Shown: in pieces, positions 3,128 through 54,508 of the stretch
How positions within the stretch are numbered: position 1 is the stretch's first letter
Layout of the letters: the number at the start of each line of letters is the position of its first letter
DNA from: Craspedostauros australis
Lineage: Eukaryota
Assembly (NCBI GenBank): GCA_030167865.1
Contig: JALAGF010001672.1
Location: 1-60,268 of the forward strand
DNA length: 60,268 nucleotides
Direction: 5' to 3'
Translations under genes and position numbers: made by a program
The notes under the pieces: generated by a model
Databases searched by the model: none
Seen by the model: the letters and a program-made list of their open reading frames with translations, nothing else
What the model was told of the DNA's origin: nothing

Positions 3128-4930
3128 TTATGTCCCCCGAAATTCATCATGCTCAAATCGCCCCCGCTGCTTCTCTGGTGTGGCCCTGGGATAGAACGTG
3201 CCGATGCCGTGCATCTTGCCATTCTCGAAGGATCCGGCGTAGGTGTCGCCATTGTCGAAGCGGGCGACGCCGATCCCGTGTGGCAAGAACACGCTGGGAT
3301 CTTCCCTGGATGGCATGACGGGGCCGCTGTACTTGACGTGCATGCCGCGCACTTGGAAGTCGAAATGTCGCACGCGTGTGGGTGTGCTTTGGGCCATAAC
3401 TTCGTCCTCGAATGTGACTTGGCGTTTGAGCTTCTGCTGCGCCAGGCTGATGTTGTCTGGCGTCCCCGGTGGTCTTCGGTAGCCCATGATGTGACGTGGC
3501 GATGGGGCTGTCTTTCTCGGCGTAATGTAGCTGCTGTTGTTGTTGTTGTTGTAGCTATGCTGGCTCTGGCTCTGGCTCTGACTGATGATGCTGTCATCCA
3601 TGGAAGGTCCCTTCATGATCATGGCTTCGACGCTTTCGGGTGGCTCCCCTTTCTCGGCCACTTGCTTCACCTGAACCGCCCGGTCGTCGTCTTGACGACC
3701 CGGCGTATTCTGCTGCTGTTGTTGTGTCTCGGAAGATGCAAGATCTGATCTGGAGATCATGGAGAACGACTGGGACATGGAGAGCGACATGGACATCGAA
3801 GGAAGCGGCCTGGGCGATTGCTGCGATGCGTTGGATCCGCTGTACTTGCTGGTGAGATCGATGACGGACATGTCTGTCTGCTGTTGTTGTTCTGGCGTTT
3901 GCTGTTGTTGTTCTGGCGTTTGTTGTGGCGGAGTCGATGGAGACAGCGGTTCACGATTGCCGCCATGATTCGGACTGGTGACATTCTTATTGCTGCTGTG
4001 GTTGTTGACACGACCTTGCGCATTCCCATTGTCACCATAGTCTTGTTCCTCCTCCGAAATGACGGAGATCGGCTCCTTGAAGGAGCGACCCAACGGATCA
4101 TCGAGCAGACCTCCAATCTGCTTACGCAGATCCCGCACGGTCGCCTGCAGCAGACCGATCTGCTCCGCCTGCTTCTCGATGAGGATCGTCTGCAATCGAA
4201 TCTCCTCGTCCTTGCACCCGCACAGATCGCATGGTTTCAAGGAAGGATGCAGGCTGTTGCCATCCGTTTGATGTTGGGAGAAGTGCTGCAGGACGGATTG
4301 CGTACGCATGTGATGATGGCTGTGTTGCGCATCATCATCATCATCATCGTCGTCCTCCTCTTCCGATGAGATAGAATGCTCCTCCTTCTTCTCTTCGCCA
4401 TCATGCGATGAGAACGAGAACGGGGACGACGTCGACGCCGCCGACGAATCCAGAATGGGCGACAGAGGTGCGCCCACCGTCGGTTCCTGCCTCAGAAAGT
4501 GCGGATTGGACAGACTGGAGATGGTGGATTTGCTGGACAATCCGGAGGAAGCGTTGGGCAGCGACAGCCGTTCGTGAGGCACCATGACGAGGGCGTCCTT
4601 GGGCAGCGACGCCGGCGGATCGGCCCGGTGAATGACCATGCCTCTGCCATTGCTGTTCATCGTCTTTTTGGGGACAAGCATGCCGACTCCGGCACCCAGA
4701 TTGGCAGGTGCGTCTTCGCCCGTAGTGTGCTGCATCTCGGTGAGCTGTTGTGGCTGCGGATGCGTGAGTTGCTGTCGCTCTCCAGCAGCTGCGGCGGCCC
4801 TGTTCTCGACAGAGGGAGACTGCGTCGCCGATAAGGTGCCTTGCGTCGTTGGCGGGTCATTCGCCCCGAAGATGCCGTTCGACGTGAACTCCGTCGATGG
4901 CCAAAACGAGTTGCTGAACACGGATGTCAT
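3128..4930 (-). CDS. Coiled-coil plus C-terminal MORN-repeat protein (array member 1)
   Basis: 600-aa ORF. CDLCGCKD is followed by the heptad IRLQTILIEKQAEQIGLLQATVRDLRKQ. The C-terminus YSGP...LPHGIGVARFDNGDTYAGSFENGKMHGIGTFYP matches the MORN consensus YxGxF/WxxGxxHGxG. Confidence 0.85.
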   Translation of the reverse strand: MTSVFSNSFWPSTEFTSNGIFGANDPPTTQGTLSATQSPSVENRAAAAAGERQQLTHPQPQQLTEMQHTTGEDAPANLGAGVGMLVPKKTMNSNGRGMVIHRADPPASLPKDALVMVPHERLSLPNASSGLSSKSTISSLSNPHFLRQEPTVGAPLSPILDSSAASTSSPFSFSSHDGEEKKEEHSISSEEEDDDDDDDDAQHSHHHMRTQSVLQHFSQHQTDGNSLHPSLKPCDLCGCKDEEIRLQTILIEKQAEQIGLLQATVRDLRKQIGGLLDDPLGRSFKEPISVISEEEQDYGDNGNAQGRVNNHSSNKNVTSPNHGGNREPLSPSTPPQQTPEQQQQTPEQQQQTDMSVIDLTSKYSGSNASQQSPRPLPSMSMSLSMSQSFSMISRSDLASSETQQQQQNTPGRQDDDRAVQVKQVAEKGEPPESVEAMIMKGPSMDDSIISQSQSQSQHSYNNNNNSSYITPRKTAPSPRHIMGYRRPPGTPDNISLAQQKLKRQVTFEDEVMAQSTPTRVRHFDFQVRGMHVKYSGPVMPSREDPSVFLPHGIGVARFDNGDTYAGSFENGKMHGIGTFYPRATPEKQRGRFEHDEFRGT

Positions 4931-22737: not shown

Positions 22738-24447
22738 ATGGTATTCAACGTGAGCGAATCCGCAGCATGGGCCGTCCTCTTCGTGATCCTGATCATCTTC
22801 ACGGTTCTGGCCGTCGCATCCGCCGACTTCATGTCGAGCATCGTGCCTGAGGGGGTCGCCAACCTCCTGCTGCTGGGCCAGCGCAAGGACAGCAACGGCG
22901 TCGACATCTCCGGCGGCGCCATCGACTACTTCCTCGCCGCCAGGAACTCCGCCGGAACGTGGTCCATCGCCCTCTCCTACTTCGCCTCCGGAATGGGGGC
23001 GTGGATCGTCTACGGAACCACCGAGATGGGCGCCAACCCAAGGCTCTCCTGGCTGGGAGTCCTCGGCTACTCCGGCGCCAGCTCCATCCCGGCCCTCCTC
23101 GTGTGCTGGCTGGGACCCAAGGTCCGCGAGCACTCCGACGGCCACCGCGCCTTCTCCACCACCGACTTCGGACGCCAGCGCTACGGCCGCATCATGCAGG
23201 TCTCCATCGCCTGCATCTCCGGATTCTTCATGTTCATCTACATCGTCGCTGAGCTCACCTCCATCAGCAACGTCTTCGCCCTCCTCACGGGAGAGTCCCG
23301 CGAGTGGTTCGGCATCGGCGTCACCATCACCATGGCCGTCTTCACGCTATTCTACACCGGCGTGGCCGGCCTCCCAGCCTCCATCGTCACCGACAAGTTC
23401 CAGGGCGTCATCATGTTCTTCCTGGTGCTCCTCCTCACCATCGCTGTCTCCTCCTACGAGGAAAACCAGATCACCTCCAGCGAGTTCTCCAAGGCCTCCG
23501 ACATCACCGATGAGGGCCTCATGGCCGCCATCACCCTCGTCATTGCCATCGCCTCCGCGGAGTTGTTCAACCAGTCCACCTGGCAGCGCGTTTGGGCCGC
23601 CAAGGACATCCCAACCCTGCGCAAGGGCTTCGGCCTCGGCTCCCTCTTCGTCTTCCTCCTCATGATGTTCTTCGGAGTCATGGGCATGATCGCCTACGCC
23701 AACGACCCGGAGGCCTACGACAACTTCGAGAAGTTCGCCTTCCTCGCCTTCTTCGACATCCTGGCGCCGCTGCCAAACGCGTGGCACATCATCTCGCTCA
23801 TCCTGGTCACGGCCCTCGCCGCCTCCTCCATTGACAGTCTGCAGAACGGAATCACCTCCGTCTTCTACCACGACCTCGTCAAGCTAGGATACCAGCCGCA
23901 GACCACCGCGCGGATCTTGGTCGTCCTCCTCAACATCCCGGCCGTCTACATGGCGTCCGACAAGTACGACGTCATCTCGCTCTTCCTCGTCGCCGATCTC
24001 GTCTGCGCCACCGCCGCCTTCCCCACCTTCCTCGGACTCCAGAAGGAGGACATGCTCGGAGGCATGCTGCCGGCACCAACCGAGCTCGGTGCCTTCCTCG
24101 GAATCATCAGCGGCATGGCCACCGTCCTCATCAACGGTGCCATCAACGACGTCGATGGCAACGCCTTCGACTACTTCTGGCTCAAGAACCAGGGCATCTG
24201 CTCCCTGTGCGGAAAGAAGACCATGGTCTCCTTCATCATCACCCCGATCGTCTCCGCCATCATGACCTACGTCTTCTCCTTCCTCGACATCATGGTCCGC
24301 GGCGACCGCGCCCGTATGCCCATCATCCCAGTCTCATTCGATGACGACGACAAGGACACCGTCAACGAAGGCGACCACGACATGGAGGGCAACGATTACG
24401 ATGACAAGAAGCTGGACTCCTCCCACCGCTCTGAGCTCTCTGCCTAA
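22738..24447 (+). CDS. Solute:sodium symporter (SSS) family transporter, DUR3/DUR31-like (urea/polyamine)
   Basis: ATG at 22738 follows an aac-rich UTR; 569 aa with more than 12 hydrophobic segments. SSS motifs: DYFLAARNS, ALSYFASGMGAW, DFGRQRYG, YTGVAGLPASIVTDKFQG, QSTWQRVWAAKD, ALAASSIDS. Codon bias toward C-ending codons is very strong. Confidence 0.88.
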   Translation: MVFNVSESAAWAVLFVILIIFTVLAVASADFMSSIVPEGVANLLLLGQRKDSNGVDISGGAIDYFLAARNSAGTWSIALSYFASGMGAWIVYGTTEMGANPRLSWLGVLGYSGASSIPALLVCWLGPKVREHSDGHRAFSTTDFGRQRYGRIMQVSIACISGFFMFIYIVAELTSISNVFALLTGESREWFGIGVTITMAVFTLFYTGVAGLPASIVTDKFQGVIMFFLVLLLTIAVSSYEENQITSSEFSKASDITDEGLMAAITLVIAIASAELFNQSTWQRVWAAKDIPTLRKGFGLGSLFVFLLMMFFGVMGMIAYANDPEAYDNFEKFAFLAFFDILAPLPNAWHIISLILVTALAASSIDSLQNGITSVFYHDLVKLGYQPQTTARILVVLLNIPAVYMASDKYDVISLFLVADLVCATAAFPTFLGLQKEDMLGGMLPAPTELGAFLGIISGMATVLINGAINDVDGNAFDYFWLKNQGICSLCGKKTMVSFIITPIVSAIMTYVFSFLDIMVRGDRARMPIIPVSFDDDDKDTVNEGDHDMEGNDYDDKKLDSSHRSELSA

Positions 24448-34256: not shown

Positions 34257-35882
34257 ATGGCACGCACCTTCCTCGCAAGCCCGCTCACCATCCGCAAGGG
34301 TGTCCGCAACCACAAGCAGACGCAGACAGCTGCTGCAGCATCGAACACCACTAATAGCAACAACAACCATGGCAGACGGAGAAGCAGCACCAGCAGCTGC
34401 GCCAGCGATGCCTCCAGCAAGGCAGCAGATCTCGCACATCAGCTGAATCAAGCGCGCAGGATTCTGAAGACCAACCAGAACCGCCTGCTGCATGCCTGCG
34501 TCAGGCGCCATTGGAAGCTCATCGTCGAGACGTGCGCTATGTACGCCAGCGTGGTGGTGGAGATGGCTGCCATCGGCCATCGCGATGGCAGCAATGACCT
34601 CCTGCCTCTCATGCGCAAGCAGCTGCGTCACGTGGATCCGTGGGGCAACACGGCCCTCCACATCGCCTTGTACGAGAAGCCGCCGCTTTCGGTCGTTCGC
34701 GCCATTCTGGATCTGGAGCTGTTGCTTCAAGATGCCGCTCCAACTGCCACCACTAGTCCATCGGCAGGCAACAACAAGGACGACGCCCCACACGCCCTCC
34801 TGATCTGCAACTCGCGCGGACAGACGCCGCTGCACGTCGCCTGCGCCAACGGATGCTCCACGGCCGTCCTGCAGGTGCTGGTCGATGCCAACACCTACTC
34901 GCACGTGGCCACGCAGGCCATGTTCCTGCCGGATCACACGGGATACACCATCCTCGATGTTCTGCTGCATCACTACGAGATGTGGCTGCACGTGCCGACC
35001 GTTCGCGAGTACAATCCCAAGGTGGAGCACTTCACTGCGGAACGCATGCTGGTGGATGCAACCGTCGTCGATGGCCATGCTCCTACCGACGACCCAGACC
35101 AGCAGGATATCAGCCACAGCAGCACCATCGACGACTATGATGGCACGTACTACTGCGATGGAGACGACGACGATGACGTCGCTGGCCTTTACCTCCGATT
35201 TTGGAATTCCATCGACCTGCTCCTGCAAGCGGCCTGGTGGTCGTCGCCGCTCGAAGATCATCACGATCGCCAGCACCACGAGCACCATCACGCGCAGCGG
35301 TCCTCGCTGCCGAGTCTCCTGCACGCCGCGGCGTACTGCTCCACCATCATTCCATCCAAGGTCGCCGACGCCTTGTTCCGCGTGGTGCAGATGGAGGAGA
35401 AACGCTACACGCCCTTGGACGTCATGGTTTCCACCCCCATGCCCCAATCCACCTCGCACGATCACATCCTTCTGCAGAATCGGAGATACTTCATGGAGGA
35501 ATGTGCACGCCGGTACAACCTGGACAAAGACGACAATGATGCGACTGCCTCCTCCCTCTTGCACCAAGCCATGGCGTCCGGATACCTCTGGAACGAACAT
35601 CCCCTCACCGAACAAATTCAAACCGAACAAATTCAAACCGAACAACAACAGGACACCAACGCACCCTTCCGCTACCGATCGCCCAGCGCCTTGTCCATCC
35701 TGTGGCAACACGTATCCGGCAAGGCAGCTCCATTCGCCATGCACGACGCACGCACGGGATTGTATCCCTTCCAGCTTGCCGCCATCGCGTCTGATTTCGC
35801 CGTTCACAATGACGTCAACGCTCTCGATACAATTTACCAACTCCTTCGTCTCAATCCGCACGCTGTCAGCGATCAGCTCTAG
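34257..35882 (+). CDS. Diatom-type ankyrin-repeat protein
   Basis: 541-aa ORF. Ankyrin motifs DPWGNTALHIAL, NSRGQTPLHVAC and DHTGYTILDVL. Family-typical C-terminus DARTGLYPFQLAA...LDTIYQLLRLNP. Confidence 0.85.
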   Translation: MARTFLASPLTIRKGVRNHKQTQTAAAASNTTNSNNNHGRRRSSTSSCASDASSKAADLAHQLNQARRILKTNQNRLLHACVRRHWKLIVETCAMYASVVVEMAAIGHRDGSNDLLPLMRKQLRHVDPWGNTALHIALYEKPPLSVVRAILDLELLLQDAAPTATTSPSAGNNKDDAPHALLICNSRGQTPLHVACANGCSTAVLQVLVDANTYSHVATQAMFLPDHTGYTILDVLLHHYEMWLHVPTVREYNPKVEHFTAERMLVDATVVDGHAPTDDPDQQDISHSSTIDDYDGTYYCDGDDDDDVAGLYLRFWNSIDLLLQAAWWSSPLEDHHDRQHHEHHHAQRSSLPSLLHAAAYCSTIIPSKVADALFRVVQMEEKRYTPLDVMVSTPMPQSTSHDHILLQNRRYFMEECARRYNLDKDDNDATASSLLHQAMASGYLWNEHPLTEQIQTEQIQTEQQQDTNAPFRYRSPSALSILWQHVSGKAAPFAMHDARTGLYPFQLAAIASDFAVHNDVNALDTIYQLLRLNPHAVSDQL

Positions 35883-36054: not shown

Positions 36055-39000
36055 TTACTGGAATTCATTCGTAAAAGTGATGACCTTGCCGATACCGCGC
36101 GGCATGTCATCGCGCAGCTGCTTGCCCCAGTTCTCGCCCAGGTTGGCGAGGAAGCTGTGCATCATCTTGTCCGCCATCATGCGGCGCTCGTCCATGCGGA
36201 ACACGCTCAGCGTCACGTGGTCGCGTCCATCCCACACGGCCACGAAGTCGCTGTCCTCGCACCGGGCGATCACCATGCTGCCGTCGCCAAACTCGTTGTG
36301 CACCGACGTCGCGATGACGTTCATGCGGAAGCGCTCCAGGATGCTCAGCAGCATCGTCTCCATGTTCGGGCTGTCGTCACCGCCGCTGCGGCCGAACTGG
36401 AAGATGGAGTGGCGGCCGAACGCCCTCTGCTCGATCTGCTGCTGCTTGGCGGCCTCCAGGTTGTAATCGGCCTGGCTGAACTTCACGGGGCTGTAGTCGC
36501 TCTTGTACTCCAGCGTTCCACCTTGGATGACGGATGGGTACACGATCAGATCCGTTCCGGTCTCCAGCACGGCACGTTCCATGGCGCGGACGCCATCGAA
36601 GGCCTCCTCGTGGAGAATGTCGAGGCTCAGGATGTTGAACTGGACGCCGGGGTCGGTGCGGCGTGTCGTGGTCGCCTTCGGTTGGATGAGCAGCTCCGTG
36701 CGTGTCAGCAGGTCGAGATCGATCTTGCGCCGGAGATCCTGGATGGCGTTGCGTCTCCACTCCTTGCCGTCCACGTCGATGGTGGCCAGCAGCTGGACGC
36801 TGTAGTCCTGGAAGATGTTGCGACGGAACGTCCAGAAGCTCGTGAAGATGCGGGCCATGGCGTATGGTGCGGTCCAATCCAGCACGGCGGCATCGATGAT
36901 GATCTCTTCTTCCTGGTTGGCCTTGATTTCGTCGGCCAGCTTCTTACGACATTCGTGAATCTCCATCAACGTCTCGTGATCATCCATGTTCTCGTCGTCG
37001 AATTCGTACGTCTCCAGTCCGGCGCATGTGTACACCTTGATCACCTTGCCGATGTGGTCGTTGCTCTCCAAGATGGTGGCGGCTGGGCATTCGTCGACGC
37101 CGCAAAAGACAATGGCCGTGGTATTCTTGAACGCCAGCTCATTCACCATGGTATGAAGTGCGGTTGCGATAATCTCTGGATCTTCCACGATCTCCTCAAC
37201 GGATTGCAGCTTGCGCGACGACACCGCTTCGTCCACCTTGTCGTCATCGATCGAAACATCCGATCCTGATCCCTTGGTTGCCGTGGTGGTCTCCTCATCG
37301 AATTCGAAGGTCTTGCCATCGCACTTGCGCGTGTGGTTTCTGAGATCGGGTCCGATCAGTTCGGAATCCTCCTCCCACGAATGGCTGCCGTACATTCCAG
37401 AAACGACGACGCGGAAGGATGAGGCGCTGCTCTTGTGACCCACCATCTTGCCGCTGCCCAAGGCCTTCACGAGCGCAGCACGCGTGGTCTCCATGCGCTC
37501 GAAACGCCCCCACAGGTAGATGTCCATGGCGACGTAGTTGTGCTCCGGCCAGCGGCGCGCCATGACGTAGCCCTCGGCCATGGCGACGGTGATCTGGAAG
37601 ACATCACCAGAATTGTTCTCGGAATAGATCGAGGTGAATTCGAGTTCCTTCAAGGTCGTCGTGATGGCCTGCTCGACATCCTCCATGGGGAGCGTGCAGT
37701 TCTCTGCCTCGATGACCATGAGCATACCTTCACTCTTGCCGCTGCGAGGTCTATCGGCCTTCTTGAGACTGTCCTCGATGGCCATGTTGAGCTTGGCGCA
37801 GGATCCATCGAGGTTGGGGTCGCTGTTCTTGTAGTCACGCCACAGGTAGTACGGTCCGCCAGGGTACTCGCCGACGTCCGGCAGCAGCAGGTTCTCGACC
37901 TTGTGATCTGTGAGGTCGTCCTGTCGGAAAAAGTCGATGTGGTTGCTGCCGAGGATCATGGATTGATCGCAGATCATGGGGCAGTGATAGTAGAAGGCGT
38001 CGATGGCGTAGTCGAAAACCTTGGACATCTGCGTGAAGTACGGTTCGTTCTTGACCATGATTCCATCCGGCTTGACGAGCAGGGCCATGGCATCCAGGAT
38101 GTCGATGTGATCCGTGACGGTCAGACTGGTCGCTGTTTCGGAAACGTCCACCATTACGTAGTCGAAGGAGTTGGCGTACTCCTTGGGAAGCAGCACGAGG
38201 GACTTGGTGGCATCTCCGAACCACCATTCCACGCGTTCGTCGTCGAAGTTTGGCGAGGTGTGGAAGTAGCGGAAGGAGTTGCGGACGACGACCTGATCGA
38301 GCTCCAGTCCCATGACGAGTTCGAGGTTGGGATACTTCAGCACCTCCTGCAGGATCATGGAATCGCCACCGCCAATGAAGGCGACGCGCTTGATGTCCTT
38401 GAGGTACCGCGCCGCGTAGTTGACGGCGTATTCGTGATAGTGAGGACGGTAGTTGTCGCAGATCTGGACGATCCCGTCCAAGTCCATGCACATGTTGTAA
38501 TCTCCGAGCTGCTCGGTCTTGACGTGCCCCGCCTTCTCCGCCGAGGTGGCCGTGCTGAAATCCTGGAAGAAGGAAATTCGCTGGTACTCCGTGTTGATGT
38601 TGATCATCTTTTCGTACTTGCTGAAGTCGAGCGTGATGGAGTTGGGACACGTGATGAATCTTGGCCGCTGCACATCCTCCTCGTTCTGGAGCTCCGGGTA
38701 CATGACCTCGAGACCGCAAGTGTCGCTGGAGCCACGGATGCAGCCCAGCATGGTCTCGTCGTCGAAGCCATCGTGTTCCGGCGGCATGCGCGTGGAGATC
38801 TCCTTGACGGCGTTGGACATGGCGACGATTCCAGCATCCACGAAGGCAACGAGGGAGTCCCATTCATGCTGGGGGATGATGGTGTCTTCGCGACGCGCTG
38901 CGCTCCACGCAGCTGGCCCTGACGCAAGCTCGTCCATGCGCATGCGCACGAGGCGGCTGAGATGCTTCTTCATGGTCATGTGCGCCTCCTCGTCGTCGCC

Positions 39001-40231
39001 ACCATCGATCCAGATGACTTTGTAGGGACTCTCGCCATCCTCGACCTCATCGTCAGAATCAAGTTCGATGTCAAAGACCAGGCTCTCGATGTCGAAATCG
39101 CTATCACGGAAGGACCAACGCTGCGGGTATTCCTCGATGAAGCCAAAATCTCTGAACAGATCTGTGATTCAAGTTGGTGGCGTTGTGTTATGTCGCGTTG
39201 CATTTGCATGAGGGAATGAGTGTATTTGGTAGAGCATGTGAGAGACGGATGCATAGAAATGGTCAGACGATGGCGGAAGCCGCTGTACAGAAGAAAAGCT
39301 CGGCCAACCCAATGCAAGACTTGGAACTTCGAATGTCGGTGGCATAACGAAAGCAAACATGGCACATCCTCAACCCACCTGGTGTTCCGTACTCGTCTTC
39401 ACGAGAGCAGCTGGGACAATCGACGTATGAGATGAAGAGCTGGTCTCCCGGACTGATATCCTTGGTTGCGTAGAGTTCGTAGCCGACACCCTTCTTGAGC
39501 TTGGCCTTGACGTTGGTGCCCGCGCCATCATGGTGGTTGTACAGGTCGTAAATCGGAACCAAAGCATCGAAATCAGCACGCGAGACCATGTGCATCGCGG
39601 CCAGGACTTCCGTGTAGGAGGTGCCGCCGCCGCAACCCTCCATCCAGTCGGTGGTGATCCAATGGTAGAGCTCGACTGGTGGCAGGACGACGAACCGCGT
39701 GGTTCCCAACTGAATGGCCCCCATGAGATCGTGCGCGAGATCGCTGAAGAGGGAAGGCAGCTGGGGCATCGGGGTGGCCTTGAGGAAGTCGATGAAGGGG
39801 GCCAATTTGGACTCCTCCTGCGAGTTGAACTCCTCAATGAGCTTGTACGTCGCAACGCACGGGATGTCACCATGGAATCTCTGTCCTCCCTCACCCACGT
39901 TGTTGATGACAGCATCCAGCGGGATCTTCGCCAGCAGCTCTCCCTCGTCGAGCTCGGCCTTGGCGAAGACGCCCAGCCCTGCGACATCGCTGCTTGCGTG
40001 GAACGAGGTGGACCCGACCTCCTGAATCATCTGATCTGCGTTGAAGTAGCCGTTGGGCATGGCGTTGACCCAGTCGGCAACTGCCTTGGCCTTCTCGACG
40101 CGCTCCGAGTGCGGCAGGGCGTGGCTTGGATCCAGCTTCGTCTCCTCCGCGGCCACACTTCCTGCGGTTGCTGCGCACGCAACCACGGCCAAGGCCCATG
40201 CCGCAAGCAGCAGGTGGTTTGGCTTCCTCAT
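36055..40231 (-). CDS. Secretory multidomain fusion: signal peptide, SET methyltransferase, spermidine/spermine synthase (aminopropyltransferase), degenerate AdoMetDC-like domain(s); putative long-chain polyamine synthase; 2 exons, ~1319 aa
   Basis: Exon 1 is 40231-39379 (alternative ATG 40273), the intron is 39378-39162 (GTGGGT...CACAG) and exon 2 is 39161-36055. Splicing gives YGTP|DLFRDFGFIEEYPQRWSF and joins the 336-aa and 974-aa ORFs with no stop. Signal: MRKPNHLLLAAWALAVVACAATA. SET: GLGVFAK, LVPIYDLYNH, GDQLFISY. Aminopropyltransferase: EYQRISFF, DLDGIVQ, YHE, RVAFIGGGDS, ELDQVV, GDA, FDYVMVD. AdoMetDC-like: EGYVMARRWPEHNYVAMDIYLWG. Confidence 0.9.
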
Positions 40232-43200
40232 CTTTGTTCTCGTACTTGTCTTCGTACTTGTCCTCGTGCTCATACTTCTCGTAGCTCGAAAGAGTCGCCG
40301 ATGTTGTTATTATGATCCTCACAACTGATCTCTATGCGGTCTCTGTGTCGGTGTTCTTTGGGATACGAGTCGAGTGCGAAGTTGCTGGACTCCCACCCAG
40401 TTGCATTGTTGGTGGCGGAAATCATGTAACGACTCAATGCGTGCGAAAGATTTGTGGAAGATTTGGGCTGTTGGAGCCGCTCAGAGTGTCTCACACATGT
40501 TATTTCTCTTTTGTGTCATGGGGCACCGTATTTACAGACCCATGTGATGTTAACTGCCAAACGTCAAAATACCAGCACGAGCACCTCGTTCCAACGGTCA
40601 CAATTCAACGGCTACATTGGCGCACCAAGAGAACCAGAGGTGATCGATGACGAGAGTTGGCTCTGTCCCTCCCCTCCCTCCACTCTCTGCTTGTACCACA
40701 CATCTGTAGAGATACTTCACTCCAGGTAGATCATGGGCAATCCTTCCAGACTACTATTATTCTACATCACAGAGAAGAGCAGAGGATGCCACTATGGCAT
40801 TCGAAGGGATGTTCGTGGAAGCAAAGATTGCTATTACACCGAATGGTGTGGCGGGGATCGTCAATGCTGCCCACGAAACGGCACGCTCTCACTATGGCAA
40901 CAAATTGGGGAAAGTCTTCCGCACATCATGCTCCGTCTCCAATTCTCTGGGGAGGACTTTGGAAAATGGATAGGGAGGCATGCGCTGGTGCTATTTGCAA
41001 TGGGATTTGGTCTTGGCAAATTAGAACCGATCCAAACTAATCCCACAACTGCGGTTCCATCCATCCATTCATTCATTCATTTTATTCGTTGAATCAGTTG
41101 TCTGTTCCTGCACCCCCATCATCGTGCTCGCAGATGAGTAGCTTTGACTCTACTTGCGTGGTCATTGATCCTGCAGTACATGCTAACCAAGCCTTGAAGC
41201 TATCGTGCAACCTAACCTCTCCCTCCCAGTGATGTGCTATGCACGATACCAATCCCGCAAACATGGGAACTCTCATCGCGCTGGTGACCACAAACACCGC
41301 ATGCCATCCTTTGCACATTGGAAACTTGGGTGCTCTCTATCTATCTATCCATCCATCCATCCATCCATCCATGCACGCATCAAAATACAGCCAACACGCT
41401 GGAACCAGCTGGTGCTGTGATCCTCACAAAATGAAGACGGCAATTCATTTAACCACTCCTCCAGAGGATCACCTTGTCCATCACGTCCAGAAATGCAGAG
41501 AACACATGCGAAATGATGTGACGGACCACCATGACACGTTCGCTCCAACCGATCCAAACTCCATCGCACGAGCACGATCATTCGCACTGCTCTACTGACG
41601 TTGCTCTGTCTTCCTCTCTGCCAATCCCGTGGCACGATCACCATCGCAAGCATGCCTTCGCTGCGATCGAATGTTTGGCGAATGTACCATACAATGCACG
41701 CGAATGTAGATGCGAATGAACGGATGCTGTCCCTTCGAGGTTGTGTCACTGGATTCCAGTACGAGTAGCTCGCGGAGCAGCGGAATGATCACTGCTGCGG
41801 AATGAGCAACGACCTATTCTGTGCGTGAAGCATCATGGACGAACCACAAACATGAGAGGAGCGCGGAATGTACATACTCGTGGAAGAGCATCGATCAGAT
41901 CAGTGTCCACCGTCTTCCTCTGAGGACCATCAGTGGCATGGAGTTAGAGCGCATACTCTATGGATAACAGCAGCAGCAGGAACAACATCGCCCAACAGAG
42001 TTGAGCGGCATCTTGTGGGCCGGTGTCTGCGGTTCCAATGTCGTACGATCTATTATGCCAAACCGCACCTCCATTTTGCGGCAGCTCCTGTGGCCTTCTT
42101 CTGCAACAAAAAGTGAAGCACGCATCACGTCTGCAAACTTCCAATGTTCGTCTGTGTTCTGATTCGTTGGTCTTGTTGATCTTGTAGTTGGGTCTTGAGC
42201 AAGAAGAGTCCCTGTGCCAAACCTCAAGAATTGACAAAACAGTTTCTCTCGGAGATATTTCGTTGGGATAGCCCGTTTCGAATGACACACCAGAGAGGCC
42301 TTGACGGACGATGAGAAAACGGACAGCGGCACGAGGATCGTCCGAAAGAGGTCATTGTTGTAGTGAGCGGACATGTCGCGCGGAAAGAGTATGTCTGGCC
42401 CTACGAAGCCTGGTTCTGGTTGTGGTCATCCACTGGCATACTCGAAGCATCTGACCAATCAACGTGATCTAATTTTGTAGGGCCTTGTCCAAGCGATGTC
42501 GCATCGACGTGGTGGATGAGTTTGACCTGTAGATACGATTGCGCGTTGTGTCCTTTTGTGCCTGGTGTTGGATGGGAGGCATCTGCGTTTTTGCGCCCAA
42601 GTTGTTGCGCGAGCGCAGCCGCGTTGGCGTAGTACCCGAGACCGCTTTGCCTCTTGTGTTGTGTGTGCGTGTGTTTGGGGGAGTCGTACTACTCGTCGCG
42701 ACAGTAGCGGCCACGAACGCTCGATTGTTTGCATCACCATTGGACGAGGCAGCAACGAGTACCAGTGCGCTGTTTGTTTTCACGTTGTTTCGTAGTACTG
42801 ATGAAGAGAGAGAGGCAAAACGCCCGAAAAAGCAGCAGCAGCAAGAACAGCGCCAAAGCAGCATGAACAGCAGCAAGGAGCAGAGGCAGCACAAAGGGAC
42901 GCTGGCCGCAGTCACTTGCGCATCCTTTCCAGAGAGAGAGAAGTCACCATCTGCGCCGCTCACCCACCAGACCAGGCCTGCCATCAACACCCGACCAACC
43001 CCAACCACAAAGACATCAACAAAGCAACAAGCCGACAAGCAAAGACATCAACAAACGAGGAGGCAATCAAATCAATCAAGCCAATCAAGCCATCGTTGGG
43101 CGAAGGGAAGGACCTGAGTGCTTGCAACGCTGTCGTGGAGATCCGCATTCAGAGAGAGGGAGAGAGAGACATCTTGGCGAGACGCAACCAAAAGACCGCC

Positions 43201-43762: not shown

Positions 43763-46312
43763 ATGCTGAACAAGGAAGCAGACAAACCAACGTCGAAGAT
43801 GACCAGCAACAGCGCCCCGCTCCCGAGGTGCTTCTGCAACTGGAAGCACTGCCGGACCTGGCAGAAGGAGTTTGCGACCACCGGCCACCCGCACTTCAGC
43901 GGGGTCATCAAGCTCAAGTTCTACACCGACAGCACCAAGAGCATGGCGCTCAAGTCCGCCGTGGAGCGCTGCCTCCGGGTCGACGCCAGCCGCCGCAACG
44001 AGTGGAAGGTCGTGGACGGCCGCGAGCTGGCGCGCTTCTACGTGGCCAAGCACCACTACACCCCGCAGATCCTCGAGGCCTACAACAAGGACCGCAAGAC
44101 CTGGGACTGGAGCGAGCCGCTGGATGCCATGGACGCCAAGCAGCTCCTGCACGAGCGCTCCGACGCCTACTACTCCGACGATGAGGAGTCCGTCGACAGC
44201 GACATGGCCCGCTACGTCCAGACGCCCAACGTGCCCAAGGACAAGGTGCGCGAGGCCCTCTCCCTGTGGCACGAGAAGCTCGACCAGATGGAGGAAGGAA
44301 AGGACGCCGGCGACAACGAGGACCACAACGTTGGCCACGACGTTGGTCACGACGCCGAGCAGGACGCAGAGCAGAACGAAGACGCCCAAGACCAGGACCA
44401 GGACCAGGACCTGGACCTAGCCAACGAGGATGCTCAGCAGCAGCAGGACCATTCGGACCCGCAGGCCGATGTCAAGCCCCCCGCATCGTCGCGAGCCGGC
44501 AACGGAGAATCGCAGCACACGCAGAGCACCCTGGCCACCACCGTCACCGACCTGCACGCCATGGAGAACCTCTCCATCAGCGGCCCGTCCCCCACCGGCA
44601 GCAACAGCAGGAACCACAACAACAGCCACCTCACCACCATCAACGGACCGGCGCCTCCCGTGGCTCCCACTCGCTCTGCGGACGGCGGCAACGCCCAAAG
44701 CGAGGAGAACGTGCTGCTGCGGGAGCAGCTCAGCGCATACCAGGATCAGCTCAGCCAGCTCCAGAACCTGGTCCAGACACTCACCAGCCAGATTGGTCCC
44801 GGCATGGCCGGTGCTGCCGGTCCAGGTGCACCTCCGCCACCCGCTCTGCAACAGCAGCAACCGCCGCCATCGCAGGACACCGCGCCATCCAGCCGCAGGA
44901 AGAACAAGAAGGCCAACCGCGACGACAAGAGCAGCGGCCGCGAAGAGTCGGAGGACGAGAACTGGAACGAGCAAGGTGCCCGTCCCGGTGGCAAGCGCGG
45001 TGGCGCAACCAACAGACCCGCCAACGGCCCAGCGGACGACGACGACATCGCCCAAATGCCCACGTACAACCGCACCGCAAGGCACGGCCCTAGATACACG
45101 GCTCGCAAGAGCAGCGTGCGATCGAAGCGCTCCATCCGCAGAGACAGCATGCACTCCCGAAGGAATTCCATCCACTCTCGCCGCAGCATGCGCGGCGGAG
45201 GCGGAGGCGGAGACGATGCCTCGGTCATGTCACGCCAATCGCTGCATTCGGTCTCCCCCAGCATCAAATCGCTGCCGCGTGAGATCGAGCTCATGGACGA
45301 CGACGAAGACGAGGAGGGGAGCGAATCCATGCGACGTCGCGGTGCCGGATCAACTGGACGACGTGGGGGACGCAACCGCGGTGGCGCCACCCCAGGTGCA
45401 GGCGACGACGACTACAACGAAGATCAGTACCGCCGTCCCGAAGACGACACCCGTTCCGTCGGTTCCCGAAGCGCCGCATCGCGACGGTCCAGGCAATCCT
45501 TCGTCGGCAGGAACCGAGCCAGAGGCTCCCGTGTCGGCGGTGCCAACAACAACGCAGGCGCCGCCAACAATAACAACAGCAACAGCAACCGCGGTGCACA
45601 ATCCTCCTCCTCCAGCCGCGGCAGCGGTCGCGGCGGCGTCAGCGTCCCTGTTGAGATCGACGTGTCCGGCGACGAGCTCGAGGACGAGACCTACGCCAAC
45701 GTCTCCAATGACACCCTCTACGTCAAGAAGCGCGACATCGTCGACCCCTACGGCGAGCAGGGCGTGTACACAGGGGCTCTGTCAAGATCCACCGGCATGC
45801 CCAACGGACGCGGCCGTCTCGAATACGAACGTGCGGGCAGGTGGTACGAGGGCGACTGGTGCCACGGACGATGGACCGGCTACGGCCGTCTCTCCAACGG
45901 CGACGGCGACTTCTATGAAGGCGGCCTTCGCAACGACCACAAGCACGGTCGCGGCAAGATGCACTTTGCCGATGGACGCCTGTTCGAGGGAGAGTACGTG
46001 CGCGGCCAGATGGTTCAGGGACAGATGACGTACCAGGACGGCAGCGTGTACAACGGATCCTGGGTGGATGGAATGCGCCACGGAACAGGTCAGTGCGTCT
46101 TCGTGGATGGATCTGAATACCAGGGCGAGTTCAAGGAGGGCAGCTTCCATGGCCAAGGCCGAATGACATGGAACGACGGTGGCTGGTACATCGGCCAATG
46201 GTGGGACGGCGAGATGAACGGTCGCGGAAGAGAAATTCGCCCCGACGGCAGCCTGCGTCATGACGGAGAGTGGAGTCGGGGACAGCCGATTCGCAACAAG
46301 ACATCGAGATAA
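43763..46312 (+). CDS. Protein with a Cys/His N-terminal domain, coiled coil, disordered R/S/G-rich middle and ~8 C-terminal MORN repeats (paralogue A)
   Basis: 849-aa ORF with strong codon bias. N-terminal CFCNWKHC...YVAKHHYTP. MORN units: YTG, YEGDW, YEGGL, FEGEY, YNGSW, YQGEF, YIGQW, HDGEW. Confidence 0.9.
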   Translation: MLNKEADKPTSKMTSNSAPLPRCFCNWKHCRTWQKEFATTGHPHFSGVIKLKFYTDSTKSMALKSAVERCLRVDASRRNEWKVVDGRELARFYVAKHHYTPQILEAYNKDRKTWDWSEPLDAMDAKQLLHERSDAYYSDDEESVDSDMARYVQTPNVPKDKVREALSLWHEKLDQMEEGKDAGDNEDHNVGHDVGHDAEQDAEQNEDAQDQDQDQDLDLANEDAQQQQDHSDPQADVKPPASSRAGNGESQHTQSTLATTVTDLHAMENLSISGPSPTGSNSRNHNNSHLTTINGPAPPVAPTRSADGGNAQSEENVLLREQLSAYQDQLSQLQNLVQTLTSQIGPGMAGAAGPGAPPPPALQQQQPPPSQDTAPSSRRKNKKANRDDKSSGREESEDENWNEQGARPGGKRGGATNRPANGPADDDDIAQMPTYNRTARHGPRYTARKSSVRSKRSIRRDSMHSRRNSIHSRRSMRGGGGGGDDASVMSRQSLHSVSPSIKSLPREIELMDDDEDEEGSESMRRRGAGSTGRRGGRNRGGATPGAGDDDYNEDQYRRPEDDTRSVGSRSAASRRSRQSFVGRNRARGSRVGGANNNAGAANNNNSNSNRGAQSSSSSRGSGRGGVSVPVEIDVSGDELEDETYANVSNDTLYVKKRDIVDPYGEQGVYTGALSRSTGMPNGRGRLEYERAGRWYEGDWCHGRWTGYGRLSNGDGDFYEGGLRNDHKHGRGKMHFADGRLFEGEYVRGQMVQGQMTYQDGSVYNGSWVDGMRHGTGQCVFVDGSEYQGEFKEGSFHGQGRMTWNDGGWYIGQWWDGEMNGRGREIRPDGSLRHDGEWSRGQPIRNKTSR

Positions 46313-48237: not shown

Positions 48238-51015
48238 ATGGTGGTGAACGAGGAGGACAGGAGCTTCGCGACGAGGTCCATGGGGACGCACAATGACAGG
48301 TCCATCACCAGCAGCCACCATGGCAGTAGACACACGAACGGCACTAGCAACAGCAATGGCGGCAGCAATGGCAACAGCAATGGCAACCAACTAATGCCCA
48401 AGTGCTTCTGCAACTGGAGCAACTGCAGAGCATGGCAGAAGGAGTTCGCAGCCACCAACCACCCATGCTACACCGGAGCCATCAAGCTGAAGTTCTACAG
48501 GAGCAGCCCCAAGAGCATGGCGCTCAAGGCGGCCGTGGAGACCTGCCTCAACGTGGACCCCGGCCGCAGGGACGGATGGAAGCTGCAGGACGGCGACCAC
48601 ATGTGCCGCTTCTACGTCGCCAGGCACCACTACACGCCGCAGATCCTGGAGGCCTACAGCCGCGACAGGAAGGCCTGGGACTGGAGCCAGCCCCTCACAG
48701 CCGACCAGGCCAAGGACCTCCTCTACGCGCGCTGCCACCCCTACTACTCTGACGACGAGGCCTCTGTGGACAGCGACGACGCCAGGTACATACAGACGCC
48801 CGACGTTCCCATGGATCAGGTCAGGCAGGCCATGTTGCGCTGGCATGAGGAGCTGGATCGCATGTACGCGGATCAGGATGAGCATGAGCATGACAATGAG
48901 CATATCAATGACAATGAGCATATCAATGACAATGAGCATATCAATGACAACCATCAGGCGCAGCATGCGGACGTGGTCAAGTCGCCCACGGGCGGCAAGT
49001 CAGCCTCGCAGCACACGCAGAGCACCTTGTCCACCAACGTCACAGACCGATTCGAGGCCATGTCCGTGGGTGGAGGCCCCAGCTTGGATCAGAGTCTTTC
49101 CCATTCTCATGTCACCAACAACACCAACACCAACAACAACACCAACAACACCAACAACGCTCCTGGCAGGGAACAACAGAACCAAGCGCTGAGGCAGCAG
49201 ATCTCCATGTGTCAGGAGCAGATCGAGCAGCTCATGAACATCGTCCAGACCCTCAACACTCATGTCAATCAAGGAGCCGCTGTTGCTCCTGCCCCTGCTA
49301 CCACTCCTCCTACTCCTACTGCTACTCCTACTGCTACTGCTGTTCCCACAACCACTACCACTGCGACCAATGCGGCCAGACCGCGACGTCAGATCTCAGG
49401 TGCAGATGCCACGTTTGGTGGTGGCAATGCGACGCGTGATCAACGTCCCGAGGACACCAGCAATGCCCCACGTCGACGCAGAGCGCGAAAGAACAACAAC
49501 AGCAACAACAGCAACAACAGCAACAACAACAACCACCGCGATGATGCCAGCGGCATTCGCAGCAACACCAGCAGGACCGATGAGTCGGAGGACGAAGGAT
49601 GGAGCGAGACGAAGCAGCAGACGCCACCTTCCGATGACGATGAGACGATATCCACCTTCCACATGGCGCACACCAACAACCGATCGTCCCACTCGCGACA
49701 TTCATCCCGACAATCCGCCCGCAAGGGCAGCATCCGCTCCAAAAGATCCATGCGCAGGGACAGCATACACTCCAAACGCAACTCGGCGCACTCCAGGCGC
49801 AGCATGCGAGGTGGCGCCACCACCAACAGCGGCAGCGGGGGCGGTGACGATCAGTCATGCATGTCGCAGTCGCTGCAATCCATATCGCCCAGCATCCGAT
49901 CGCTGCCCAGGGAAATTGAGCTCATGGACGAGGACGATGGTGACGATGTCATGAGGCGCCGTGGTGCTGCGGCCGGCATGAACGCCATCGGCGGTGGCAC
50001 GGCCACCAACGCCAACCATGTCGGCGGAGGCAACCGCGGGCACCGGGGCGGTCGCAACCATCATCGTGGCGCTGCTGGCCCCGGCGAGGACGATCAATCC
50101 TTCTTCGATGATTCCTACCGCCGTCCAGATGACGATGCGCGATCCGTCGGGTCACGCAGCGCGGCATCTCGTCGTTCGCGTCAATCGTTTGTCGGTGGCA
50201 GGAATCGCGGTGCCCGGGGCGGATCCAATCGTCTGGCTGCCCGAACCAACGCCGGCAGCACGGCGCCAACCTACGCCACCAGCGGCAGCCAGTCACACTC
50301 CACCTCCAGCCGCGGCAGCGGCCGGGGAGGTTCCAGCGTGCCCAGCGAGATCGCCCTCTCCGGCGATGAAATGGAGGACGAGACCTCCGCCAACGTCTCC
50401 AACGACACGCTCCACGTCGTCAACCGCGACATCGTCGATCCCTACGGCGAGAAGGGCGTTTACACGGGTGGCCTGTCCAAGTCCACCTCCATGCCATTCG
50501 GCAAGGGACGCCTGGAGTATGAGCGTCCCGGGAGATGGTACGAAGGCGACTGGTGCCACGGCCGCTGGACAGGGTTTGGTCGCCTGTCCAATGGCGACGG
50601 CGATTTTTACGAGGGTGGCCTCAAGAATGATCACAAGCACGGCTCCGGCAAGATGAAGTTCGCAGACGGACGCATCTTCGAAGGACAGTACGTCCGCGGC
50701 CAGATGATGCAGGGCAAGATGACCTACCATGACGGCAGCGTCTACAACGGAGCCTGGGTCGACGGCATGCGCCACGGACGCGGTAAGTGCGTCTTCGTCG
50801 ACGGTTCCGAGTACGAGGGCGAGTTCAAGGAGGGAAGCTTCCACGGCCAAGGCAAGATGACATGGAACGACGGCGGCTGGTACATCGGCCACTGGTGCGA
50901 CGGCGAGATGAACGGCTACGGCAAGGAGATTCGTCCTGACGGCAGCCTACGTCATGAAGGCGAGTGGCGCAGCGGGCAGCCCCTTCGCGATTCGCAACAG
51001 CACAGGAGGCGGTAG
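48238..51015 (+). CDS. Tandem paralogue B of 43763-46312 (Cys/His N-terminal domain plus ~8 MORN repeats)
   Basis: First ATG at 48238 (925 aa). Shares closely similar blocks with paralogue A: CFCNWSNCRAWQKEF, SMALKAAVE, HHYTPQILEAY, LPREIELMD, SVGSRSAASRRSRQSFVG and the whole MORN domain. Confidence 0.9.
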   Translation: MVVNEEDRSFATRSMGTHNDRSITSSHHGSRHTNGTSNSNGGSNGNSNGNQLMPKCFCNWSNCRAWQKEFAATNHPCYTGAIKLKFYRSSPKSMALKAAVETCLNVDPGRRDGWKLQDGDHMCRFYVARHHYTPQILEAYSRDRKAWDWSQPLTADQAKDLLYARCHPYYSDDEASVDSDDARYIQTPDVPMDQVRQAMLRWHEELDRMYADQDEHEHDNEHINDNEHINDNEHINDNHQAQHADVVKSPTGGKSASQHTQSTLSTNVTDRFEAMSVGGGPSLDQSLSHSHVTNNTNTNNNTNNTNNAPGREQQNQALRQQISMCQEQIEQLMNIVQTLNTHVNQGAAVAPAPATTPPTPTATPTATAVPTTTTTATNAARPRRQISGADATFGGGNATRDQRPEDTSNAPRRRRARKNNNSNNSNNSNNNNHRDDASGIRSNTSRTDESEDEGWSETKQQTPPSDDDETISTFHMAHTNNRSSHSRHSSRQSARKGSIRSKRSMRRDSIHSKRNSAHSRRSMRGGATTNSGSGGGDDQSCMSQSLQSISPSIRSLPREIELMDEDDGDDVMRRRGAAAGMNAIGGGTATNANHVGGGNRGHRGGRNHHRGAAGPGEDDQSFFDDSYRRPDDDARSVGSRSAASRRSRQSFVGGRNRGARGGSNRLAARTNAGSTAPTYATSGSQSHSTSSRGSGRGGSSVPSEIALSGDEMEDETSANVSNDTLHVVNRDIVDPYGEKGVYTGGLSKSTSMPFGKGRLEYERPGRWYEGDWCHGRWTGFGRLSNGDGDFYEGGLKNDHKHGSGKMKFADGRIFEGQYVRGQMMQGKMTYHDGSVYNGAWVDGMRHGRGKCVFVDGSEYEGEFKEGSFHGQGKMTWNDGGWYIGHWCDGEMNGYGKEIRPDGSLRHEGEWRSGQPLRDSQQHRRR
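48898..48951 (+). repeat. 18-bp coding tandem repeat x3 (EHINDN)
   Basis: gagcatatcaatgacaa(t/c) occurs three times in tandem. Confidence 0.9.
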
Positions 51016-53258: not shown

Positions 53259-54508
53259 TTAACTGCTGCCTTTCTTCTGCCGCGATTTCGCAAGCGAATC
53301 TATGTACACCTGGAGGTTGTTTTGAACGTGCTCTTGCGTCATGAAGGCGCAGAAATCATCAGCATCCGATTGCCGATGCCGAATGAGATCATCGATGCGA
53401 GGCTTGCGGAACCACAGCTTGCTGTCGGCGCGTGCTGCGGAAGGTATTTCTGCCACCCATGATCGCAGGTAGGATTGCGCAGCCTCCAGGATGGCGTCGT
53501 CATGCGTCATCTCGACGAGCTGATCGACCAGACCAACTTGCAGGGCGTCGTTGGCATTGAACAGAGTGCCGCGCGCAAGGGCGAGTTCGGCATCGCGTCT
53601 TCCGATCGTATCGATGTACAACTGCGCCAACCACGGCGCGCAAACGATGCCAAGCCTGGACTCGTTGAGACCGATGTTGTAGGAGCCATTTGTCGCTGTG
53701 GTCGTCGCTTGCGGTGGCGATGCGAACATGCGGTAATCACAGAGCATGGCGAGGATGCAGCCACCAGCGATGGTATGGCCTCGGATGGAGGCGACCGAGG
53801 CCAACCTGGAGCCGTACAGGTCGATGTAGAGCTGCTGGAAGGCATGCCAGTACAGAGGCAGGCGATTTTCATCGGGCTTGTGAAATTCTTTCAGATCCAG
53901 GCCAGCCGAGAAGATGTTGGGGACCGCGGAATGCAGCACGAGGCCATGGATAGAATCATCCGACTCGGCTGCTTTGACCGTCTCCGACAAGGTCTGCAGC
54001 CTGTACTTGTAGCGTGATGCATATTTCGCATGGTAGTTGAGTATAGAGTGGAGTATTGCAATTGTGCATTGGCGTGCAAGTGGGAGCATGATATGATACA
54101 CGTGAGCGCGCACATGAGCGTTTTGCGGATGGAGAGGAAACGGAAATCAGTTGGTTGAGCCCGCAGGCAGAAGACCATAGAGTATTATATAATAGAATAT
54201 AATAGTACGCATTCATTGAACAGTCTCTGCAGAGAAAGAGAAAGCGAGGCATTAAGCGGCACATACATCTCAAGTGACAGCGTGTTGACTGGCGGGCTGT
54301 TCAAGGTGACAGTGATGATACCGCTATCAGTCTCCTTGTCGATCAGCACCAAGGAAGAGGAGGGTGAGCTTGATTCATTTGAGAGACGCCGGATGAGAGT
54401 GCCTTGTGCAACCGTATTGTGGAGCGGACGTCCGCCGGGAAGAAGTCTGCGGTTGGTGGCTGCTTGTGTTGCCTTCCGCAATGGTCTGAGGAAGTGGATG
54501 GATGCCAT
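53259..54508 (-). CDS. ECI1: Mitochondrial enoyl-CoA delta isomerase (crotonase superfamily); 2 exons, 327 aa
   Basis: Exon 1 is 54508-54267, the intron is 54266-54001 (GTATGT...TACAG) and exon 2 is 54000-53259. The junction gives LNSPPVNTLSLEM|LQTL. Motifs: IFSAGLDLKE, IRGHTIAGGCILAMLCDYR, IGLNESRLGI, ALQVGLVD. The N-terminus is Arg-rich and transit-peptide-like. Confidence 0.9.

Follow-up and report, generated by a model that had tools for sequence, protein, structure and literature searches.

A probable two-exon gene of Craspedostauros australis codes for a divergent member of the diatom SET-aminopropyltransferase-AdoMetDC-like fusion family

How diatoms build the long-chain polyamines (LCPAs) that shape their silica is a question of long standing. 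The main candidate for this task is a family of proteins in which a SET methyltransferase domain, an aminopropyltransferase and a fold related to S-adenosylmethionine decarboxylase (AdoMetDC) are fused, whose original description is reportedly that of Michael in 2011 (FEBS Lett 585:2627). The locus analysed here is found on the minus strand of Craspedostauros australis contig JALAGF010001672.1 (assembly GCA_030167865.1), within a stretch of 60,268 nucleotides (the window) to which all coordinates refer. It features two minus-strand open reading frames (ORFs) listed separately, coding 336 amino acids (39263..40273) and 974 amino acids (36055..38979), and raises the question of whether they form one such fusion gene and of what its product does. 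The two ORFs are very probably the exons of one gene, which is a divergent new member of the already described diatom family. The product is best explained, with rather more confidence than doubt, as a lumenal enzyme of about 1300 amino acids, soluble or anchored by its N-terminus, which would combine aminopropyl transfer with N-methylation of amines.

The gene is organized as follows:

39379..40273, minus strand: exon 1, 298 codons and the first base of codon 299, starting at ATG 40273 or 40231
39162..39378, minus strand: intron of 217 nt, GT-AG, phase 1
36055..39161, minus strand: exon 2, the last two bases of codon 299, 1034 codons and the stop codon (36055-36057)

The intron GT lies at 39378-39377 and its AG at 39163-39162, the donor reading CCA G/GTGGGT (39379/39378) and the acceptor CACAG/ATCTG (39162/39161). 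Exon 1, whose 298-residue translation ends in EYGTP, finishes with TAC GGA ACA CCA G and exon 2 starts with AT CTG TTC AGA. The split codon G/AT codes Asp and the junction peptide is YGTP-D-LFRDFGFIEEYPQRW. The exon 2 frame (39159..36055) is translated without interruption into 1034 residues beginning with LFRDFGFIEEYPQRW; it begins 60 codons ahead of the ATG of the 974-residue ORF, and these codons too are open and in frame. The spliced coding sequence has 4002 nt, 1333 codons and a single, terminal stop. Its product has 1333 residues when translation starts at ATG 40273 and 1319 residues from the second ATG at 40231, the latter being the length of about 1319 residues that had been proposed from the sequence-only reading. 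If the intron is retained, the frame runs through 38 unconserved codons and then meets a stop.

The joining of the two ORFs by this 217-nt intron, claimed in the same reading, is borne out by comparison with homologous proteins. All nine full-length homologues searched against the window with tblastn give two high-scoring segment pairs, in frames -1 and -2, which abut in homologue numbering at 39368/39162-39204 (in P0004, residues 25-266 match 40087..39368 and residues 263-1210 match 39162..36073). When the spliced protein is aligned with all 60 homologues longer than 1150 residues, the junction is crossed without insertion in 56 of them, with the motif YGT[PA]-[ED]I[FL]RDYGF[VI]Ex[FY]PQRW, while the motif is absent from P0060. 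The three others (P0010, P0061 and P0095) carry an insertion at the exact junction that begins with Gly. They are probably gene models in which the same phase 1 intron was left unspliced, so that the intron position is apparently conserved in other diatoms. All 213 in-frame, stop-free GT..AG joins of the region were also scored with a hidden Markov model to which only the homologues contributed. The highest score, 1106.3 bits, is that of the join 39378/39162, the runner-up having 1097.0. When a profile of standalone and fused SET relatives is aligned with human SETD6, the family motif YgTpeilrdyGfVeqyPq falls on IHMYGFVEPYPD, which places the intron inside the SET domain; reading the locus as two genes would sever the conserved end of this domain. 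There is no sign of any further intron in exon 2, as judged by tblastn and by its open frame.

The full-length product has six parts, namely an N-terminal signal or anchor, the SET domain, a helical linker, the aminopropyltransferase, an AdoMetDC-like fold (fold 1) and a C-terminal half that resolves into two additional folds. They are listed here from the N-terminus, the residue numbers being those of P0001, the 1034-residue product of exon 2:

40148..40273, minus strand: basic N-terminus and hydrophobic stretch, a predicted signal peptide or type II signal anchor (from hydropathy only)
39115..39979, minus strand: SET domain, split by the intron, of SETD6/SETD3/LSMT class (Pfam and profile matches)
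38650..39000, minus strand: linker from SET to aminopropyltransferase, P0001 residues 54-170, mostly helical in the model and of no assigned family
37933..38649, minus strand: aminopropyltransferase, P0001 residues 171-409, with motifs Q, YHE, GGGDS, LELDQ, GDA and DVSET
37399..37740, minus strand: AdoMetDC-like fold 1, P0001 residues 474-587, with Gly530 (37570-37572) and Trp550 at the catalytic positions
36508..37224, minus strand: Rossmann-like (class I methyltransferase-like) domain, without recognisable cofactor motif and with four invariant Cys
36058..36429, minus strand: AdoMetDC-like fold 2, P0001 residues 911-1034, with the family motif WDGRxHxDxNLF

Pfam identifies SET (exon 1 residues 99-283, 31.3 bits for a cut-off of 22.4), Spermine_synth (PF01564, exon 2 residues 240-372, 64 bits for 22.9) and AdoMet_dc (PF02675, exon 2 residues 493-573, 35.3 bits for 25), in this order and each above its curated cut-off. 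Together with the exon joining, these matches confirm that the three types of domain are in one chain. Structure prediction had been suggested as a means to define the domain boundaries. Modelled with AlphaFold2 and a 65-row family alignment (A2), the whole exon 2 product forms one body with a mean predicted local distance difference test (pLDDT) of 83.0 and a predicted template modelling score of 0.86. The named homologues of the protein are all from diatoms. They were found with E values from 1e-125 to 1e-174 and a query cover of 78-100%, at 29-37% identity; no sequence on record exceeds 37% identity to the window's member. With a net charge of -96, the protein is very acidic (the homologue median is -6.1 per 100 residues).

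The aminopropyltransferase model matches solved spermidine synthases with Z 22.6 and a root-mean-square deviation (rmsd) of 2.9-3.0 over 245-248 aligned residues (Foldseek probability 1.00). Across the 60 homologues and the 65 rows of the alignment, little or no variation is seen in the motifs Q, YRPxYHE, GGGD, LExDQ, WWFGDAxK and D-x-S-E-T. Positions kept relative to the Plasmodium spermidine synthase are the Gln of DGxxQ, YHE, GGGD, ExD, GDA and the first Asp and the Ser of DSSDP, to which we assign the roles that these motif residues presumably have in spermidine synthases; GGGD, ExD and DA would thus be the motifs that bind dcSAM, and the catalytic Asp is also retained. The Asp of GGGD, kept in 60/60 homologues, is one that we take to favour decarboxylated S-adenosylmethionine (dcSAM) over S-adenosylmethionine (SAM) and to be lost in putrescine N-methyltransferases. 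Note that P0116 (Seminavis robusta CAB9519730.1), which is among the homologues that keep this Asp, is annotated 'Putrescine N-methyltransferase', a label that is probably automatic and wrong. The NCBIfam spermidine synthase equivalogs score far under their cut-offs (NF002010, 80.8 against 260 bits; TIGR00417, 60.6 against 249.55 bits), which identifies the domain as a relative of ordinary SpeE and not as its orthologue.

The conserved C-terminal end of the SET domain lies at the start of exon 2, where the motif FRDFGFIEEYPQ aligns with YGFVEPYP of SETD6, and is followed by a helical region in the exon 2 model. Searched against solved structures, the SET-only profile finds SETD6 (8.7e-11), SETD3 (2.5e-9) and Rubisco LSMT (4.5e-7), three proteins that the profile of the whole family finds as well, and more weakly the plastid protein PAP7/pTAC14 (1.5e-4) and EZH2 (5e-3). 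The domain thus belongs, by its profile, to the non-histone SETD6/SETD3/Rubisco-LSMT class; the view that it is not of the histone-enzyme type is strengthened, EZH2 being far weaker than these nearest solved relatives. A single-sequence phmmer search of exon 1 against PDB sequences gave chance-level matches only, and the substrate-binding lobe of Rubisco LSMT (Rubis-subs-bind) has no Pfam match at E<=0.1. All 60 homologues retain the His of the NH motif and 50 of them the Tyr of the C-terminal SY motif, both being intact in the window's protein. By their conserved motifs, the SET domain and the aminopropyltransferase look catalytically competent.

The situation is different in the AdoMetDC-like fold 1. 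Its fold is retained, as it aligns with the class 1b AdoMetDC structures 2iii (Z 13.8, 114 residues) and 1vr7 (Z 13.6). In the alignment to the Aquifex and Thermotoga proenzymes the active-site region is spanned by VAMAEGYVMARRWPEHNYVAMDIYLWG, with AEG opposite AES and LWG opposite TCG. The pyruvoyl Ser is replaced by Gly, the His five residues further on by Arg and the Cys of TCG by Trp; this Gly and this Trp are invariant in 65/65 rows of alignment A2 and in the 60 long homologues. We take the Ser and the Cys at the aligned positions to have their catalytic roles in AdoMetDC, the former being the pyruvoyl-forming residue. Since this Ser is replaced by Gly in all family members aligned, fold 1 is read as a dead fold, to which the known pyruvoyl route to dcSAM is closed in all of the family members examined. 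Its description as the dcSAM source is found in the available text of reviews of 2018 and 2025 (PMC6356823, PMC12029483). One practical consequence is that assays of proteins of this clade must add dcSAM and that a route for its supply to the lumen must exist.

The last 449 residues, which had been left unnamed, were folded separately (pLDDT 82.9) and in this model are a Rossmann-like domain followed by a second AdoMetDC-like fold, so that half of the protein would be a second, degenerate Rossmann and AdoMetDC-like module. The Rossmann-like part (~200-240 residues) matches many class I methyltransferases tied at Z 8-9, among them the probable spermidine synthase 3gjy (Z 8.5); a protein atlas search with this part gave no usable match. 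The 65-row alignment defines four invariant Cys (P0001 residues 686, 691, 712 and 737), which could form disulfides or a metal site. Two of them occupy the position of the glycine-rich cofactor loop of methyltransferases. The last 124 residues (fold 2) match class 1b AdoMetDC 2iii (Z 13.3, rmsd 3.1, 111 of 120 residues aligned) and 1vr7 (Z 12.7), and residues 5-120 of human spermine synthase 3c6k (Z 11.6, rmsd 2.5, 95 residues aligned, 20% identity), with Foldseek template modelling scores of 0.65-0.69 on the target. The eukaryotic two-lobed AdoMetDC is absent among the best 50 matches listed for the 1034-residue model, a result that is uninformative for a query of that size. A phmmer search of the C-terminal 155 residues against PDB sequences found chance-level matches only, and no recognisable Glu-Ser site is present in fold 2.

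Folds 1 and 2 are related to each other in hhalign comparison (E 6.1e-5 over 84 columns; six control pairings gave E 0.03-0.54), while the comparison of the aminopropyltransferase with the Rossmann-like domain gave no signal (E 0.16). That the C-terminal half arose as a tandem duplicate of the aminopropyltransferase and AdoMetDC module is only a guess. A complex prediction pairing the two folds scored 0.01, a value obtained without control runs. Both AdoMetDC-like folds, in which the pyruvoyl-forming Ser is missing, and the Rossmann-like domain, in which a cofactor motif is missing, look non-catalytic and are most likely scaffold or assembly modules.

The only hydrophobic stretch of the 1333 residues is found at positions 19-42, preceded by basic residues and followed by SVA/AEE. 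It fits a cleaved signal peptide; with this or with a type II anchor the catalytic body would face the lumen. An N-terminus of this kind is common among relatives, since 43 of the 61 aligned rows have a hydrophobic N-terminus (a 12-residue window of mean hydropathy >=2.0) and several others plainly lack their start. The secretory signal proposed at the outset is thereby reinforced. Plastid targeting, which follows a rule of the ASAFAP type, was set aside because Phe is absent after the likely cleavage site.

Indirect support for a location in the secretory lumen comes also from 15 Cys columns conserved in at least 80% of rows and from standalone SET relatives. Word-based searches with exon 1 alone, among proteins of near and of greater length, retrieved nothing; the latter missed even the known fused relatives, and both are hence uninformative. 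An exhaustive HMMER search with the same exon gave 458 matches at E<=0.001, of which 143 were newly stored. Fifty of these have 360-520 residues (P0202-P0268 and others) and signal-like N-termini; in the standalone relatives compared, the alignment begins in the signal region and does not go beyond the helical linker. Twelve of the 50 terminate in [DE]EL (HDEL, KDEL, NDEL and the like), a motif found at the end of 4 of 120 fused or aminopropyltransferase relatives and having a per-position frequency of 0.002. Such ends point to residence in the endoplasmic reticulum (ER) for part of the family. Taken together, these observations are good, if indirect, evidence for a family at work in the ER or the early secretory pathway, and the window's protein is itself likely lumenal, as judged from these signals.

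The proposed function builds on the hypothesis put forward for the family. Diatom fusions of this type are proposed to be LCPA synthases and N-methylases in the available text of PMC3820600, PMC6356823, PMC12029483 and PMC12803844, all citing Michael 2011, which agrees with what the sequence-only reading had stated. The hypothesis of an LCPA role is thus already in print and the window's gene adds to it a member, not an idea. What is added here are the dead AdoMetDC folds, the second module, the class of the SET domain and the ER-retrieval signals of its standalone relatives, which point to the early secretory pathway. Literature searching turned up no biochemical demonstration of the activity of the fusions, and the accessible part of PMC12803844 (December 2025) lists them among the subjects needing further study, as anticipated in the sequence-only reading.

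Work on related genes provides additional context. Diatom-specific SET methyltransferases ('BacSETs') of Nemoto et al. 2020 (Mar Biotechnol 22:551) are suggested to act on cell-wall proteins and LCPAs according to the citing passages of PMC11554505 and PMC11151724. In Seminavis robusta, 24 'BacSETs' and eight 'AMDC-APT' genes peak together with cell-wall genes, as stated in the available portion of a preprint (bioRxiv 10.1101/2020.11.23.393678). The main text of a biosilica proteome preprint (10.1101/2021.09.18.460806) mentions neither SET nor spermidine nor methyltransferase, though its supplements may list such proteins.

In the favoured mechanism, whose substrates and iterative cycle derive from the family hypothesis, the aminopropyltransferase would take an aminopropyl unit from dcSAM and attach it to a terminal amine, either that of a polyamine or that of a silaffin-type lysine. 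Methylation of this terminal nitrogen from SAM by the SET domain would follow, and repetition of the cycle would generate the N-methylated oligo-propyleneimine chain of diatom LCPAs. The dead domains would contribute as scaffold or assembly elements, as does the dead AdoMetDC-like N-domain of human spermine synthase. A separate, active AdoMetDC would provide dcSAM, which would be delivered to the lumen, as would SAM. A role in LCPA formation or on silaffin lysines is regarded as evenly balanced, and the earlier interpretation as a whole as partly supported and for the most part correct.

Several observations weigh against this mechanism. The supply of dcSAM to the lumen is a real gap, for the protein's own AdoMetDC-like folds cannot provide it; we know of no carrier of dcSAM or SAM into the lumen. 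The second acid of DSSDP is Glu throughout the family (D-L-S-E-T in 60/60 homologues, DVSET in the window), and because this acceptor-side Asp is replaced in all members, known enzymes give no guide to the acceptor. The SET domain of the window reads NHHDG where the family has NHRNG (R in 59/60, N in 58/60). The hydrophobic stretch, of ~22 residues, is long enough to be possibly an uncleaved type II anchor, and the protein ends in NEFQ, without retrieval signal. The evidence for splicing is comparative, and the best homologue is only 35-37% identical, no orthologue with experimental data having been found.

Among the alternatives, the one that survives best, though it is itself unlikely, is that the substrate is a protein: the SET domain would methylate lysines in proteins of silaffin or cingulin type, and the aminopropyltransferase would begin or lengthen a polyamine chain on the epsilon-amine of the lysine. 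Proteins are the substrates of the solved enzymes nearest to the SET domain, lysine being the target of SETD6 and LSMT and an actin histidine that of SETD3, and the ER, in which the standalone relatives look resident, is a site of secretory-protein modification; the acidic character of the window's protein and of its homologues would moreover suit lysine-rich basic clients. On the other hand the lobe with which Rubisco LSMT binds its substrate is not detected by Pfam, and free LCPAs also occur in diatom silica (available text of PMC6356823 and PMC11554505). The evidence gathered here does not separate protein-bound from free amines.

A self-contained, iterative LCPA assembly line in the lumen is doubtful. 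In such a line the aminopropyltransferase and SET domains would alternate on the growing terminal amine, while the polycationic product would be held, and its length determined, by the three dead domains (the two AdoMetDC folds and the Cys-rich Rossmann fold) on a body of charge -96. Because the pyruvoyl Ser is lost family-wide, such a line also needs an undescribed import of both dcSAM and SAM into the ER, the Golgi or the silica deposition vesicle.

That the protein is a catalytically inert paralogue, for instance a scaffold or regulator of active members, is very unlikely. Three of its six domains look dead, its SET domain deviates at two conserved positions, and the family is large, with 32 aminopropyltransferase fusions in Nitzschia inconspicua (accessible part of PMC12803844). 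However, this copy retains the aminopropyltransferase motifs as well as the His and Tyr of its SET domain, and its 4002-nt frame is unbroken.

Still less probable is a cytosolic or nuclear enzyme in which a histone methyltransferase is fused to ordinary spermidine or spermine synthesis. The SET part does bear the name 'histone N-methyltransferase domain' in available sections of reviews (PMC3820600, PMC12029483), and both dcSAM and SAM are made in the cytosol, but the protein has a hydrophobic signal after basic residues that most complete relatives share, KDEL-type ends occur among relatives, 15 Cys columns are conserved, the SET class is a non-histone one and the spermidine synthase equivalog models remain far under their cut-offs.

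It is hardly credible, finally, that two genes are present, a standalone secreted SET protein and an aminopropyltransferase starting at the ATG of 38979: standalone SET relatives do exist (the 50 among the stored matches), as do relatives of ~950-1050 residues without SET match, but the 60 codons ahead of that ATG are conserved as well as open, no in-frame stop occurs between 39161 and 36058, the unspliced SET ORF loses the class-defining YGFVExYP motif and ends in 38 unconserved residues, the spliced form tops the 213 joins, and truncation of gene models at this intron, which three long entries retain, may account for many of the shorter proteins in the databases.

The genes that surround the fusion gene in the window have no evident link to it. 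A convergent ankyrin-repeat ORF of 541 residues (34257..35882, plus strand) ends 173 nt from the stop codon of the gene; ankyrin proteins (dAnks) are implicated in the patterning of diatom silica pores in the available text of PMC11151724. MORN repeats are found C-terminally in four ORFs, two with strong (E ~1e-21) and two with weak matches: 3128-4930 and 10068-12584 on the minus strand, 43763-46312 and 48238-51015 on the plus strand. The G+C content of the window peaks in the segment 44001-46000 (0.652), within the third of them, where the AT skew is also strong (0.35); this suggests that the coding sequence there is repetitive or of low complexity. The window also codes for a protein of the sodium:solute symporter family (22738-24447, plus strand, E 8e-12) and for an enoyl-CoA hydratase (53259-54089, minus strand, E 1e-35).

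The closest known systems are the diatom fusions themselves, such as those of Phaeodactylum tricornutum (XP_002177222.1/B7FPJ4), Nitzschia inconspicua (KAG7339654.1), Cylindrotheca closterium (CAJ1961982.1) and Seminavis robusta (CAB9519730.1). The window's protein is collinear with them end to end (100% query cover) and shares their Pfam domains and domain order, junction motif, hydrophobic N-terminus and invariant motifs; it differs by its low identity to them (29-37%), no close orthologue being on record. With SETD6, SETD3 and Rubisco LSMT it has in common the NH, GEEIxxSY and C-terminal YGFVExYP motifs, but it is fused to polyamine-pathway domains, has no Rubisco-LSMT substrate-binding domain detected by Pfam and is predicted to be secretory rather than cytosolic or plastid. 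The standalone relatives of its SET domain, with their signal-like N-termini and the [DE]EL ends of 12 out of 50, may resemble the BacSETs, to judge from the descriptions given by citing papers. The fold of bacterial class 1b AdoMetDC is shared by both of its AdoMetDC-like domains (Z 13.8 and 13.3 with 2iii, 13.6 and 12.7 with 1vr7). Bacterial AdoMetDC-aminopropyltransferase fusions have a working AdoMetDC, according to the accessible text of PMC12803844, whereas Ser and Cys have become Gly and Trp in 65/65 rows of the diatom family. Human spermine synthase (3c6k) offers a parallel to this loss, as there too an aminopropyltransferase (Z 17.6 over 211 aligned residues) is joined to a dead class 1b-type AdoMetDC-like fold, which has a role in dimer formation (PMC12803844, available text). 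Relative to the human enzyme, the domain order of the window's protein is reversed, its dead folds are two instead of one, and it adds a Rossmann-like domain, a SET domain and a predicted secretory signal.

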